Shown in pieces: positions 1 through 5,886 of a stretch of DNA of 64,000 bases (position 1 is its first letter; the number at the start of each line of letters is the position of its first letter). The position numbers and the translations under genes were made by a program. Source of the DNA: Escherichia coli (GTDB lineage: Bacteria; Pseudomonadota; Gammaproteobacteria; Enterobacterales; Enterobacteriaceae); the NCBI RefSeq assembly GCF_029227855.1, contig NZ_CP074356.1; one strand, given 5' to 3'. The notes beneath the pieces are model-generated. The model worked only from the letters and a program-made list of their open reading frames with translations. It searched no databases and had not been told where the DNA came from.

Positions 1-655
1 AGGGCAATAAAGGTCAGGATGATGTACTCCAGAGACATGGCGTAAACGCCCTGAAGTGCAAAAATAACGACGCTAATCACGTTAATAATCACCCACAACA
101 GCCAGTTTTCCACATACTTACGCGTCATCAGAATCATTGCCACGATAGATAACACCATCATGCAGGAATCCCAGAACGGGAAAGCGTCCGGTTGCAGTTC
201 AGGCATCACAACCTGTAATCCTAATGCTTGCATGATCATGACTGCCACGCGGGTCAAAAATGCAAACACCGGATTGATAAATACCGTCATCAGACCAATC
301 GAAACAACGCAAACCGCCAACCAGCTTAGCGCCTTCGGCAATGGCAACCAGCGAATTTTCAACTCCGCCTCGTTCTGACTGGTTTGTCGCGACCACGCAT
401 ACCAACCGTAAATATTCGCGGCAAAGAAAAACACCTGTAATAGCAGGCTGGCATACAGCTGAATCTGAAAGAAAATAATGCCAAACAAGGTGACGTTGAT
501 CAGGCCAAAGAAGTAGTTGCTGATCTTCTCCAGACTGGCAAGGCCAATACACAGCAACCCGGCGATCGTGCCTACCGCTTCGATCCATGAGAGATCATAA
601 CCGCCTGCTCCTATTGGTATATGTACCAGGATATTCTGCACACTAAAAAAATCCA
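1..655 (-). CDS. pnuC: Nicotinamide riboside transporter PnuC (partial; 3' end runs off the window start)
   Basis: Minus-strand frame open from ATG (complement of 653-655) to the window edge; translation begins MDFFSVQNILVHIPIGAGG, hydrophobic multi-pass; directly downstream of nadA as in the nadA-pnuC operon. Absent from the ORF track because no stop codon lies inside the window. Confidence 0.85.
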
Positions 656-693
656 TCTTTCCCCCAAAGCGTAACGTTACGCCTTATTATTCG

Positions 694-1737
694 TTATCCA
701 CGTAGTGTAGCCGCAAAATCCAGCATACGATTGAGCGGCACCAGCGCCCTCTCTCGCAGCCTTTCATCAACATGAACCTCGTGATTGCTTCCTTCCTGTT
801 CTAATGCCTCTGCGATGGCCTGAAGGCCATTCATGGCCATCCACGGACAATGCGCGCAGCTGCGGCAGGTTGCACCCTCACCTGCGGTTGGTGCTTCCAG
901 TAACTCTTTATCTGGCACCGCCTGCTGCATTTTGTAGAAAATACCCCGATCGGTTGCCACAATAAGCCTCTGATGTGGCAATGTTTTCGCAGCAGCGATC
1001 AGTTGACTGGTGGAACCGACCGCATCCGCCATATCGACAATAGCTTGTGGTGATTCTGGATGCACCAGTATGGCAGCATCCGGGTATTCTTCTTGCAAGC
1101 GGGTTAACGCCTGAGTCTTAAATTCATCATGCACAATGCAGGCACCCTGCCAGCATAAAATGTCTGCGCCCGTCTGTTTTTGCACGTAACGCCCCAGATG
1201 TTTGTCGGGTGCCCAGATGATTTTTTCACCCAAACTATCCAGATGATCAATAAGTTCGACGGCAATGCTTGAAGTTACCACCCAATCTGCCCGCGCTTTT
1301 ACCGCAGCAGAAGTGTTGGCGTAGACGACGACAGTATGATCGGGATGGGCATCGCAAAATGCGTTAAATTCTTCAACAGGGCAGCCGAGATCCAGTGAAC
1401 ATTCAGCCTGAAGTGTCGGCATCAGAATTGTTTTTTCCGGACTGAGAATTTTGGCGGTTTCTCCCATAAATCTCACCCCAGCGACTAACAACGTAGAAGC
1501 GGGATGCTTTGCACCGAAGCGCGCCATTTCCAGAGAATCAGAAATACAGCCACCGGTTTCTTCTGCCAGTTGTTGAATTTCGGGATCGGTATAGTAATGG
1601 GCAACCATCACCGCATTACGTTCTTTTAGCAGACGTTTTATCTTCTCGCGGTAATACGCTTTTTCATCAATGCTTAACGGCGTCGGCTTCGGGGGGAAAG
1701 GATAAATCGCCGTGTCTGGATCAAACATCACGCTCAT
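694..1737 (-). CDS. nadA: Quinolinate synthase A
   Basis: 347 aa [21 protein letters not shown]..., Cys-containing motifs typical of NadA; synteny with pnuC and the lysT tRNA cluster. Confidence 0.95.
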
Positions 1738-1809
1738 CTTACCATCTCGTTTTACAGGCTTAACGTTAAAACCGACATGAGCGTAATATTCGCTGTTATC
1801 GGTGTAATT

Positions 1810-1827
1810 TGTTTTATATGCTAAACA
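1810..1827. promoter_or_regulatory. Candidate NadR operator (NAD box) in the nadA promoter
   Basis: TGTTTT-ATATGC-TAAACA palindrome, matching the TGTTTA-N6-TAAACA NadR consensus, about 75 bp upstream of the nadA start codon. Confidence 0.55.
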
Positions 1828-1983
1828 AGATAGTCGAATGGTGGGGAAAAGTCACTCGAATTACGTATGAGATGCCGAATGCCACACTTTGCGTCTTATT
1901 TCTCCGACGTAAAGTTGTTTACGCAGCAAACGCGGAGTATGTCATCTGGGTTAAGAATTGAAATTGAGAGATGCCTGAATAGC

Positions 1984-2012
1984 AAAAAAGCGCCTTTAGG
2001 GCGCTTTTTTAC
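1984..2012. terminator. Palindromic rho-independent terminator (distal copy)
   Basis: aaaaaaGCGCCtttagGGCGCtttttt: GC stem flanked by A-run and T-run, so it can act in both directions; exact second copy at 2140-2168. Confidence 0.6.
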
Positions 2013-2014
2013 AT

Positions 2015-2139
2015 TGGTGGGTCGTGCAGGATGACTCGCTTCGCTCGCCCTACGGGCCGTCGCCGCGAGCGGCTCCGTTATTTCGCTGCGCTCAACTCGA
2101 ACCTGCTGCAGGTTCGAATCTTTGAGTATCGCAGATAGT
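2015..2139 (-). repeat. tRNA-Lys 3'-end fragment plus spacer between the two terminator copies
   Basis: Begins with tggtgggtcgtgcagga (the first 17 nt of the minus-strand tRNA-Lys genes) then diverges; also contains tcgaacctgc. Related fragments at 2404 and 2897. Confidence 0.5.
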
Positions 2140-2168
2140 AAAAAAGCGCCTTTAGGGCGCTTTTTTAC
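2140..2168 (-). terminator. Rho-independent terminator immediately downstream of the last tRNA-Lys gene
   Basis: Same palindrome as 1984-2012, starting 3 nt after the tRNA 3' end on the transcribed (minus) strand. Confidence 0.7.
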
Positions 2169-2170
2169 AT

Positions 2171-2246
2171 TGGTGGGTCGTGCAGGATTCGAACCTGCGA
2201 CCAATTGATTAAAAGTCAACTGCTCTACCAACTGAGCTAACGACCC
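2171..2246 (-). tRNA. lysQ: tRNA-Lys (UUU anticodon)
   Basis: 76 nt exact match to the canonical E. coli tRNA-Lys gene sequence (reverse complement GGGTCGTTAGCTCAGTTGGTAGAGCAGTTGACTTTTAATCAATTGGTCGCAGGTTCGAATCCTGCACGACCCACCA); symbol assigned by position in the cluster. Confidence 0.95.
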
Positions 2247-2279
2247 CTTGCGGGATTATGCTGCTTTAATCATTCAGGA

Positions 2280-2355
2280 TGGTGGGTCGTGCAGGATTCG
2301 AACCTGCGACCAATTGATTAAAAGTCAACTGCTCTACCAACTGAGCTAACGACCC
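2280..2355 (-). tRNA. lysZ: tRNA-Lys (UUU anticodon)
   Basis: Identical 76 nt tRNA-Lys sequence; symbol by cluster order. Confidence 0.95.
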
Positions 2356-2403
2356 ATACGGGTGTTACCTGAAAGATTTCTACTCGGAACCAATCTTTAA
2401 AAT

Positions 2404-2501
2404 TGGTGGGTCGTGCAGGATGACTCGCTTCGCTCGCCCTACGGGCCGTTGCTGGCGCAACGTTATCCTTCACGCTTAACATCTGAGTTTGATGTTAAAA
2501 T
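2404..2501 (-). repeat. Inter-tRNA spacer repeat containing a tRNA-Lys 3' fragment
   Basis: tggtgggtcgtgcaggatgactcgcttcgctcgccctacgggccgttgctggcgcaacgttatccttcacg; near-identical copy at 2897-2996. Confidence 0.5.
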
Positions 2502-2577
2502 TGGTGGGTCGTGCAGGATTCGAACCTGCGACCAATTGATTAAAAGTCAACTGCTCTACCAACTGAGCTAACGACCC
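2502..2577 (-). tRNA. lysY: tRNA-Lys (UUU anticodon)
   Basis: Identical 76 nt tRNA-Lys sequence; symbol by cluster order. Confidence 0.95.
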
Positions 2578-2580
2578 GAG

Positions 2581-2656
2581 TGGTGGGTGATGACGGGATC
2601 GAACCGCCGACCCCCTCCTTGTAAGGGAGGTGCTCTCCCAGCTGAGCTAATCACCC
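2581..2656 (-). tRNA. valZ: tRNA-Val (UAC anticodon)
   Basis: 76 nt match to E. coli tRNA-Val (reverse complement GGGTGATTAGCTCAGCTGGGAGAGCACCTCCCTTACAAGGAGGGGGTCGGCGGTTCGATCCCGTCATCACCCACCA). Confidence 0.95.
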
Positions 2657-2707
2657 GATACTGCGCTGGATACTACAAACTACTTCCACCGAACCCACCG
2701 TAATTAG

Positions 2708-2783
2708 TGGTGGGTCGTGCAGGATTCGAACCTGCGACCAATTGATTAAAAGTCAACTGCTCTACCAACTGAGCTAACGACCC
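2708..2783 (-). tRNA. lysW: tRNA-Lys (UUU anticodon)
   Basis: Identical 76 nt tRNA-Lys sequence; symbol by cluster order. Confidence 0.95.
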
Positions 2784-2785
2784 GG

Positions 2786-2861
2786 TGGTGGGTGATGACG
2801 GGATCGAACCGCCGACCCCCTCCTTGTAAGGGAGGTGCTCTCCCAGCTGAGCTAATCACCC
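2786..2861 (-). tRNA. valT: tRNA-Val (UAC anticodon)
   Basis: Identical 76 nt tRNA-Val sequence, 2 nt after the preceding tRNA-Lys. Confidence 0.95.
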
Positions 2862-2896
2862 GATACTACGCTGGATACTACAACTAACTAGGTTAG

Positions 2897-2996
2897 TGGT
2901 GGGTCGTGCAGGATGACTCGACTTCGTCTCGCCCTTCGGGCCGTTGCTGACGCAACGTTATCCTTCACGTTTTACTACCGCTTCCACCTTAGCGAT
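2897..2996 (-). repeat. Inter-tRNA spacer repeat containing a tRNA-Lys 3' fragment
   Basis: Starts tggtgggtcgtgcagga then ...ccgttgctgacgcaacgttatccttcacg, near-identical to 2404-2501. Confidence 0.5.
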
Positions 2997-3072
2997 TGGT
3001 GGGTCGTGCAGGATTCGAACCTGCGACCAATTGATTAAAAGTCAACTGCTCTACCAACTGAGCTAACGACCC
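2997..3072 (-). tRNA. lysT: tRNA-Lys (UUU anticodon), first gene of the cluster
   Basis: Identical 76 nt tRNA-Lys sequence; promoter region lies between 3073 and cpoB. Confidence 0.95.
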
Positions 3073-3236
3073 ACTTTTTCGTTGCTTTCGGTTTGTTTGA
3101 TATCCCGTGGCAACGGCGGCATATATTACTGATTTCAGACTTGAGCGCAACAAAAATTTCGATGTAGATCACTCAACTGCTTATGATTCGCACGACACGA
3201 CCAGAAATAATGCGACTTCTGGTCGTGTGTTATGCA

Positions 3237-4028
3237 TTACATCGCGTTCAGACGTTTTTGTGCCTGTTTAGCGCCATCAGTACCAGGGTATTTACTGATA
3301 ACCTGCTGGTATACGGCTTTCGCTTTTGCGGTGTCACCTTTGTCCTGCATGATGACGCCGACTTTAAACATCGCATCTGCAGCCTTTGGTGACTTCGGAT
3401 AGTTTTTTACTACCGAAGCAAAATAGTACGCCGCATCATCTTTTTTACCCTTGTTGTAGTTTAACTGACCCAGCCAATAATTGGCGTTTGGCAGGTAAGT
3501 TGAATCAGGGTAATTTTTGATGAAATTCTGAAATGCCACCATTGCGTCATCCTGGCGGGATTTATCCTGCACCAGCGCAATTGCTGCATTGTAATCCGTG
3601 TTTGCATCGCCGCTTTTCACCGGCGCGCCAGCATTCGCAGTACCAGCATCAGCTGTCGGCGTCGTTGATGCCGCCGCACCGCTTTGATCACCGCTGGTTG
3701 ATTGCGCCGCTGCACCACCGCTGCTGAGGCTGTCGATCTGCAACAGGATCTGCTTTTGCCGCTCCACGACCTGATTCAGTTGATACTGATTTTCCTGAAT
3801 CTGGCCACGCAGGGAATCAATATCGGATTGATTATCAGAGAGTTGTTGCTGGAGTTGGGTTAAAAGCTGGCTGTGAGCATTTGAAATACGCTCAAGTTGA
3901 GTGACGCGGTCTTCGACCGAGCCTGAGCCGACACTACTGATTGGTGCCTGAGCAAAAGCGGCCCAGGGGGCCGCTATACCAACCAGTAACGACAGACTCA
4001 ATAGTTGATGTCTGAAGTTACTGCTCAT
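3237..4028 (-). CDS. cpoB: Cell division coordinator CpoB (YbgF), TPR-repeat periplasmic protein
   Basis: 263 aa, signal peptide, coiled-coil Q-rich N-terminus and TPR-like C-terminus; downstream of pal. Confidence 0.9.
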   Translation of the reverse strand: MSSNFRHQLLSLSLLVGIAAPWAAFAQAPISSVGSGSVEDRVTQLERISNAHSQLLTQLQQQLSDNQSDIDSLRGQIQENQYQLNQVVERQKQILLQIDSLSSGGAAAQSTSGDQSGAAASTTPTADAGTANAGAPVKSGDANTDYNAAIALVQDKSRQDDAMVAFQNFIKNYPDSTYLPNANYWLGQLNYNKGKKDDAAYYFASVVKNYPKSPKAADAMFKVGVIMQDKGDTAKAKAVYQQVISKYPGTDGAKQAQKRLNAM

Positions 4029-4037
4029 GCAATTCTC

Positions 4038-4583
<546 letters not shown>

Positions 4584-4593
4584 TTAATTATTA

Positions 4594-5886
4594 TCACAGA
4601 TACGGCGACCAGGCAGGGAATTTGACCTGTCCATCAGTTGCCGGAAGACGCGCTTTGAAACGCCCATCTGTAGAAACCAAATTCAGCACGGATCCCATCC
4701 CCTGAGAAGAGCTGTAGATTACCATAGTGCCGTTAGGTGCCAGACTTGGCGTTTCATCCAGGAACGTGGACGACAGAACTTGTACGCCTCCCGTTGCCAG
4801 ATCTTGTTTGGCAATGTGCTGCTGCCCACCATTGGAGCTGACCATTACCATAAATTTACCGTCGCTGCTGACATCCGCATCCTGGTTCTGCGAACCTTCC
4901 CAGGTAATACGTTGTGGCGCACCGCCGTTGATATTCACTTTATAAACCTGTGGACGACCGGCCTGGTCAGAAGTAAATGCCAGGTTCTGGCTGTCCGGGA
5001 ACCAGGTCGGTTCGGTATTGTTACTGCGACCATCCGTCACCTGGCGGATCTGACCAGAAGCCAAATCCATTACGTACAGGTTCAGACTACCGGTTTTCGA
5101 CAAGGCGAATGCCAGTTTGCTGCCGTCTGGCGAGAATGCAGGTGCACCGTTGTGACGCGGGAATGAAGCCACCTGACGTACAGCGCCATTTGCCAGCGTT
5201 TGGATGACCAGCGCGGAACGACCGCTTTCGAAGGTCACATAAGCCAGTTTAGAACCGTCTGGTGACCACGCCGGAGACATCAGCGGCTGCGGTGAACGGT
5301 GAACGACAAACTGGTTGTAACCGTCATAGTCAGATACGCGCAGTTCATACGGGAACTGACCGCCGTTGGTCTGAACAACGTAGGCAATACGGGTACGGAA
5401 CGCACCTTTAATGCCGGTCAGTTTTTCAAACACTTCATCACTGGCGGTATGACCAGCATAACGCAGCCACTGCTTGTTCACTTTGTACGAGTTCTGAGCA
5501 AGTACAGTACCCGGTGCGCCGCCAGTGTCAACAAGTTGATAAGCAACATTGTAAGAACCATCCGGATTCGGAGTGACCTGACCGACAACTACAGCGTCAA
5601 TGCCCAGTGCGGACCATGCAGCTGGTTGTACTTCCTGCGCACTACCCGGCTGCTGTGGCAGACGAGCGCGATCTAACGGATTAAATTTACCGCTGTTACG
5701 CAAGTCAGCAGCAACGATGCCGCCAATATCTTCAGGTGCCGCACCAGGACCCGCCCACTGGAAAGGAACAACACCAATAGGACGACCGGAATCTACACCG
5801 CTGTCGATCACAATGCGGACTTCAGCATGCAGAACTGATGCCCACAGTATGAGAAAACCAAATGCTACTCGTAATGCCTGCTTCAT
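4594..5886 (-). CDS. tolB: Tol-Pal system periplasmic beta-propeller protein TolB
   Basis: [21 protein letters not shown] signal peptide, about 430 aa; synteny. Confidence 0.95.

Follow-up and report, generated by a model that had tools for sequence, protein, structure and literature searches.

RtT units and a duplicated terminator at the cpoB-nadA tRNA cluster of Escherichia coli

RtT repeats and the units linked to tRNA-Lys

The RtT RNA family was first described in 178-bp repeats located behind tyrT. Three other kinds of elements are relevant for comparison. Sponges of the 3′ETS-leuZ type are regulatory RNAs derived from tRNA spacers and trailers. Integrases that target tRNA genes usually have an att core extending from the T loop to CCA. 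Finally, tandem arrays of tRNA genes are subject to unequal crossing-over.

The units analyzed here are linked to tRNA-Lys genes and share a conserved core with the tyrT/tyrV RtT of E. coli (rttR, the 178-bp repeats). As in these, they lie on the same strand as the cognate tRNA and downstream of it, in tandem and in variable copy number, and they end in the last nucleotides of the adjacent tRNA, including CCA (18 nt for Lys, 19 nt for Tyr). The differences are that this 3′ end comes from tRNA-Lys instead of tRNA-Tyr, that the scores are much lower (46–61 bits, against 133–138 bits for the tyrT and tyrV copies of K-12), that the internal Lys units lack around 40 nt of the 5′ part, and that the terminal Lys unit includes a terminator in every repeat. 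Like the 3′ETS-leuZ sponges, the segments would be made on one transcript with tRNAs and set free when these are processed, but the terminal RtT copy lies outside the main transcript. As in integrase att sites, the tRNA 3′ end is directly repeated from a point within the T loop onward; in contrast with them, there is no element, integrase, or phage relative, and the repeat includes the host terminator. The locus also resembles tandem tRNA arrays that undergo unequal crossing-over, since it has 5–8 tRNA genes, a 205-bp Lys-Val unit present 1.9 times, and a Val/Lys hybrid in one strain, but the 156-bp unit described below holds no intact tRNA gene.

The window (64,000 nucleotides of E. coli DNA, contig NZ_CP074356.1) contains in its positions 1–5000 the pnuC-nadA / tRNA cluster / cpoB-pal region. 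One complete genome, that of strain JNEC-KY178, is 100% identical to this region. ARAGORN calls five tRNA-Lys(UUU) and two tRNA-Val(UAC) genes, seven in total and all of them minus-strand. By synteny with K-12 the first gene of the operon is lysT (2997..3072), and the others occupy the positions of valT (2786..2861), lysW (2708..2783), valZ (2581..2656), lysY (2502..2577), lysZ (2280..2355), and lysQ (2171..2246; Rfam tRNA, 79.2 bits). Unlike in K-12, the genes at the lysZ and lysW positions have no RtT unit behind them. A unit of 205 bp comprising tRNA-Lys, tRNA-Val, and a spacer is repeated in tandem at 2502–2883 (1.9 copies, 98% identity). Between pal and cpoB (3999–4137, minus strand) there is a CpoB/ybgF intercistronic RNA thermometer (RF02782, 142 bits), which is unrelated to RtT.

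Three elements of the cluster match the RtT family (RF00391) over the full model, with scores above the curated gathering score of 45 bits: 2015–2140 (48.4 bits), 2404–2570 (54.4 bits), and 2897–3065 (60.6 bits). All lie on the minus strand, within the tRNA operon and downstream of the cognate tRNA. The terminal element (2015..2140; cmscan, model positions 1–130) barely exceeds the gathering score. The internal units consist of 80 nt plus the 18-nt tRNA-Lys 3′ end behind lysY (2404..2501) and of 82 nt plus the same 18 nt behind lysT (2897..2996). In all three elements the 3′ end through CCA is that of the neighboring tRNA-Lys (18 of 18 positions). The preliminary description had recognized a tRNA-Lys 3′ end at the start of the enclosed element, as read on the plus strand, and similar fragments at 2404 and 2897. 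Both observations hold, as these two fragments carry the exact 18-mer and match RF00391, but the shared start is of 18 nt (TGGTGGGTCGTGCAGGAT) and not 17, and the elements do not diverge after it, since the three remain homologous beyond the 18-mer (repeat families D4 and D6, with 95% and 92% identity). Nor is a bare tRNA-Lys 3′ fragment an adequate name for a member of the RtT RNA family, which RefSeq annotation labels RtT sRNA. Across the 64 kb of the window there are eight copies of the 18-mer, in the five tRNA-Lys genes and at 2015, 2404, and 2897, for a chance expectation of 0.

The terminal element can be divided into three parts. The copy of the tRNA-Lys 3′ end (2015..2032, an exact match to the five tRNA-Lys genes) comprises, according to a tRNA alignment, the last two bases of the T loop, the 3′ strand of the T stem, the 3′ strand of the acceptor stem, and ACCA. 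It is adjoined by a 64-nt core (2033..2096), which aligns to the RtT consensus and contains the CCCGWAGGGCGA motif as well as the conserved hairpins. After these 64 nt, counted exactly from the 18-mer, a 10-nt piece of the tRNA T arm is found again (TCGAACCTGC, 2097–2106), adjoining its own inverted copy (2108–2120). The 5′ half of the T arm (GCAGGTTCGA) and the inverted copy that precedes it (2097..2120) form an 11-bp hairpin in the minimum free energy (MFE) structure. The fold of the whole element is more stable than shuffled controls (−48.4 kcal/mol, z = −3.06); the core hairpins are present, and four pairs of the outer stem are noncanonical in the cmscan alignment. The internal copies have an outer stem of nine pairs with one internal mismatch in the MFE structure, where upstream CGUGAAGGAU pairs with the tRNA-derived AUCCUGCACG and encloses the core hairpins. 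In these copies cmscan placed the 5′ part of the model in the upstream tRNA, leaving 44 nt unaligned. A tRNA pseudogene was considered and rejected: neither ARAGORN nor Rfam calls a tRNA at 2015–2140, and nothing is left of one but both halves of the T arm and the 3′ strand of the acceptor stem.

As judged from these matches, the Lys-linked units are divergent members of the known RtT RNA family, with Rfam scores below those of the tyrT copies but the same design. The feature is thus an already known and annotated repeat family at a well-studied tRNA operon, real but ordinary. Its annotation is uneven. PGAP (RefSeq) labels the terminal unit RtT sRNA in strain JNEC-KY178 and leaves it unlabeled in E. 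coli O145:NM FWSEC0002 (locus L008). The internal units at 2404 and 2897 are unlabeled in JNEC-KY178, as such units generally are, despite passing the gathering score here.

The duplicated terminator and the transcript

Two identical palindromes of 29 nt (AAAAAAGCGCCTTTAGGGCGCTTTTTTAC) at 1984–2012 and 2140–2168 had been described as a duplicated terminator, with an element of about 125 bp between them, and this is confirmed in each respect. The palindromes sit within a longer direct repeat of 54 nt (1979–2032 and 2135–2188, 98% identical with one mismatch), whose distal copy is composed of the 18-nt tRNA-Lys 3′ end, AATG, the terminator, and 5 further nt. On the transcribed (minus) strand each palindrome forms a 13-bp hairpin followed by UUUUUU (ΔG −19.1 kcal/mol). 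The hairpin is made of GCGCC-CUAAA-GGCGC extended by A-U pairs, and together with the U run it has the sequence expected of a Rho-independent terminator. The proximal copy (2140..2168) is the operon terminator placed directly after lysQ, and its hairpin has the same sequence as that of the K-12 operon. The distal copy (1984..2012) closes the RtT unit.

The 54-nt repeats belong to a 156-bp tandem repeat that runs from the T loop of lysQ onward and is present in about 1.35 copies in the window. Each unit opens with the 18-nt tRNA-Lys 3′ end and AATG, which are followed by the terminator hairpin and a 107-nt RtT body. Tandem Repeats Finder does not report this repeat in the window, but reports it in a strain with three copies. 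A scan of the window for consensus promoters and terminators found neither of the palindromic hairpins, nor the operon promoter; the hairpins were probably missed through an artefact of the scanner, whose stem extension swallows A/T runs.

In K-12 the lysT operon is expressed as a single transcript of approximately 1100 nt, with its end at the Rho-independent terminator behind lysQ; the terminator behind lysV, also reported to end transcription, has the same sequence (PMC4176162). Given this single transcript, the internal RtT units form 3′ trailers of tRNA-Lys and are transcribed together with it. RNase P was demonstrated to remove the terminator of the valU operon (after lysV), the same is presumed for the lysT operon, and exonuclease trimming was proposed for the long trailers of Lys pre-tRNAs (PMC4176162). 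The same study treats the spacers as trailers bound for degradation and reports no discrete stable RNA. The terminal unit lies beyond a working terminator and is therefore probably made by read-through only, in which case its RNA would stop at its own copy of the terminator.

Copy-number variation, its age, and its probable causes

The preliminary description saw at this locus the footprint of unequal recombination or of copy-number change in the tRNA cluster. We analyzed it in 59 complete E. coli genomes, sampled systematically at even spacing. When positions 1750–3250 or 1–5000 are used as the BLAST query, the internal repeats split the alignments and the length of the locus cannot be read; the query was hence restricted to the unique flanks, whose distance from each other in a genome gives the size of the variable part. 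The spans range from 3436 to 4181 bp and fall into 21 length classes. One genome of each class was parsed into modules, the other members of the class being assumed to be structurally alike. The 21 parsed alleles differ by whole units only, and the spacers downstream remain unchanged (35, 51, 48, 33, and 4 nt). Copy-number change is thereby established, and with it the contrary case, identical spacers in all strains, is discarded.

Each tRNA-Lys may or may not be followed by an internal unit (78–82 nt plus the 18-mer), and the 18-nt repeat bounds the unit in every case. The terminal unit of 156 bp (terminator plus RtT) is found in 0 copies (locus L013), 1 (the window), 2 (L012), or 3 (L016, where Tandem Repeats Finder gives a period of 156 bp repeated 3.3 times with 99% identity). 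The number of tRNA genes ranges from 5 to 8. Taking the parsed allele as representative of its length class, 29 of the 59 genomes have the terminal unit, 3 have more than one, and 11 have no RtT whatever at the cpoB-nadA locus; the exact arrangement of the window is found in 1. In the wider set of 5426 E. coli genomes, 79 are collinear with positions 1–5000 of the window and 2835 contain the terminal-type core, in at most four places per genome, a count that includes the lysV locus. This count was made with a core-only query, because a threshold of at least 80% coverage (2254 genomes) is unclean, as O157-type alleles lacking the terminal unit reach 81%. The cpoB-nadA tRNA cluster is therefore a hypervariable marker of E. 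coli, and its variability could mislead assembly, variant calling, and counts of tRNA genes.

K-12 has an RtT unit after each of its five tRNA-Lys genes, and the window lacks those after lysW and lysZ. At lysZ, the comparison of the two shows a clean absence between the 18-nt repeats. Loss between two 18-nt repeats would produce exactly the junctions seen after lysW and lysZ in the window. The published notes on strains agree, as RtT copy number shifts even between laboratory strains of K-12: J53 gained one rtT copy (PMC5968721) and OV2 lost one (PMC12584984). Variation also affects the tRNA genes themselves. Two O157:H7 strains differ by one Lys-Val unit of 205 bp and have 6 and 8 tRNA genes (loci L007 and L006, respectively). 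In E. coli Z1323CEC0014 (locus L014, approximately 2325–2400) a single hybrid gene of 76 nt replaces valT and lysW. Its first 26 nt are those of tRNA-Val and the remainder those of tRNA-Lys, PGAP calls it a tRNA-Lys, and its acceptor stem would contain two mismatches. Such a hybrid could be explained if valT and lysW had undergone an unequal crossover.

If copy number changes now, the unit itself seems to be old. In K-12 MG1655 the valU-valX-valY-lysV operon ends in a terminator-RtT-terminator block like that of lysQ (locus L147, 1030–1230), with a direct repeat 7 nt longer (GCTATCTGCGAT), and the block after lysV is also found in Klebsiella aerogenes. Yersinia and Providencia have a full-length RtT after the last tRNA-Lys of the cpoB-nadA locus (83 and 97.5 bits). 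The terminal units of the window and of K-12 differ at 4 of 156 positions. Because it is a member of RF00391, present at cpoB-nadA in Yersinia and Providencia and after lysV in K-12, the terminal RtT unit would therefore be old and not a recent accident. Hence, the idea of a recombination footprint is retained as regards the change in copy number, but not as a merely recent event. To judge from their structure, the differences between strains mostly look like later losses and re-amplifications of an old element.

The explanation that we regard as very probable is that the feature is a divergent RtT member within a 156-bp repeat, whose units are lost or amplified by means of the repeats that flank them. 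Flanked by direct repeats of 54 nt in the case of the terminal unit and of 18 nt in the case of the internal ones, whole units could be cleanly deleted or amplified by homologous or slipped-strand recombination, which would explain both the 0–3 terminal units and the presence of any subset of the four internal units. As to the direction of the events (loss or gain) and their pathway (RecA-dependent or slippage), we infer them from structure only. An artefact, i.e., a repeat mis-joined in sequencing or assembly, might be suspected because short reads can mis-assemble repeats of this size; yet the block is shared by K-12 MG1655 and thousands of other complete genomes determined independently, the variants differ from one another by entire units of 156 bp, and there are substitutions within the copies. 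The independent complete genomes and the parsed alleles rule this candidate out, and what likelihood it keeps is negligible. Exact boundaries, with units either present or absent, could be left by an integrase-type element that inserted in tRNA-Lys at its T loop, giving rise to attL and attR by duplication of the tRNA 3′ end, and was later mostly deleted. Such a relic requires direct repeats of the tRNA 3′ end, which are present, and the duplicated segment does run from inside the T loop to CCA. We nevertheless hold this origin to be very improbable. Just 80–107 nt separate the repeats, with no integrase or other gene and no ORF of note, and the DNA between them is a conserved structured RNA family. 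The terminal repeat of 54 nt includes the host terminator, in other genera a lineage-specific one, which an incoming element would not bring along. A search of phage and plasmid collections for a mobile carrier of RtT found nothing genuine: the sole hit in the phage collection is a chromosomal contig of Salmonella, and the hits in the plasmid collection are all typed as nonmobilizable and mostly large records, with those inspected carrying chromosomal genes (gltX, cpoB, and nadA among them), so that they look like pieces of chromosome.

Loss and amplification through flanking repeats would account for the variation, but they do not explain why different enterobacterial families conserve the terminal unit, which points to some role under selection. 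One could then regard RtT primarily as a functional RNA maintained by selection, a mimic of the tRNA 3′ end or T arm that would be cut out of the tRNA transcript and take part in the processing of tRNAs or in the amino-acid starvation response, with the duplicated terminator as its own stop. RtT occupies the same locus in different enterobacterial families, its RNA segments track the neighboring tRNA (with an outer stem of GTGCAGG/CCTGCAC beside tRNA-Lys, but of GGGAAGG/CCTTCCC beside tRNA-Tyr), and its fold is more stable than the shuffled sequences, as given above. Covariation has been reported for the family (PMC7657543). A further source, which cites Bosl and Kersten 1991, describes how the RtT of tyrT is freed from the transcript of the tRNA operon and implicates it in responding to amino-acid limitation (PMC4986893). 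Against such a role, around half of the E. coli genomes lack the terminal type and some have no RtT at the locus at all, i.e., it is dispensable, the terminal copy sits behind a strong terminator, and the spacers of the lysT operon were treated as degradable trailers in the study of its processing (PMC4176162). The frequent absence of RtT argues that its function, if any, is not essential in E. coli. On balance, selection for a functional RNA as the explanation of the feature seems to us possible but rather doubtful.

RtT cores beyond E. coli and interrupted tRNA genes

A scan of representative genomes with the core motif gives at least 120 loci. Among the matches listed, the RtT core adjoins the 3′ ends of Lys, Tyr, Arg, Gln, Ser, Pro, Asp, and Glu tRNAs, and in 115 of 163 cases the locus contains, in the same orientation, a tRNA gene whose 3′ end is identical. 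The core is found beyond Enterobacterales, in Marinobacterium, Salinisphaera, Thioalkalivibrio, Rheinheimera, Mariprofundus, and other genera, of which the Rfam threshold catches only some. The trailer is often duplicated: among the matches listed from other Gammaproteobacteria, 114 cores have the same tRNA 3′ end upstream as well, and for 58 of these the trailer is repeated too, with a period of 154–192 nt, and many of the duplicated trailers are strong hairpins. An arrangement in which the tRNA is followed by a terminator hairpin, the RtT core, and then second copies of the tRNA 3′ end and of the terminator recurs at tRNA-Arg, tRNA-Gln, and others, with lineage-specific terminators. It is observed in Salinisphaera, Thioalkalivibrio, Solimonas, Rheinheimera, Arenicella, Aestuariibacter, and Mariprofundaceae, in many cases below the RtT gathering score.

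The RtT of Yersinia and Photorhabdus is an entire tRNA-Lys gene whose T loop is split by a 64-nt insert, placed between TTCGA and AT, and ARAGORN calls a normal tRNA-Lys once this insert is removed. The 58-nt 5′ part of the copy of Yersinia pseudotuberculosis (locus L025, 1453–1592) is identical to a real tRNA-Lys gene at 57 of 58 positions. In Photorhabdus caribbeanensis (locus L030, 5400–7900) such copies form tandem arrays of at least 12, with a period of approximately 175 nt and some with the anticodon CTT. Interrupted tRNA-Lys copies are also found in loci L067, L068, L070, and L080. The E. coli core (2033..2096) has the same length and position as the T-loop insert of Yersinia and Photorhabdus. 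The terminal unit of E. coli keeps the 64-nt insert at the same point, and the 5′ two-thirds of the tRNA are gone.

One may therefore ask if RtT, instead of a spacer RNA, is a class of copies of tRNA genes into whose T loop a structured module of around 64 nt is set, always at one point, between TTCGA and AT. The core is located at the 3′ ends of at least 10 tRNA identities, in Gammaproteobacteria and Mariprofundus, each time tailored to the neighboring tRNA, and often within a tandem repeat that includes the local terminator. We consider this generalization unlikely as it stands. If true, it would imply either that the T-loop insert is mobile or that there is a widespread family of tRNA-like RNAs. 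In the literature searched, no paper describes T-loop-interrupted tRNAs in connection with RtT, though they may be documented elsewhere, e.g., in the notes of Rfam itself. The wider pattern, T-loop-interrupted tRNA copies together with tRNA-tailored RtT units and duplicated terminators in many Gammaproteobacteria, is the one part that may be worth further work, as a lead, not as a result.

In Yersinia pseudotuberculosis, all four tRNA-Lys genes have the T stem GCAGG/CCCGC, with an A-C mismatch at 51–63. The RtT 3′ end of this species has the same C, indicating that the tRNA and RtT copies evolve in concert.
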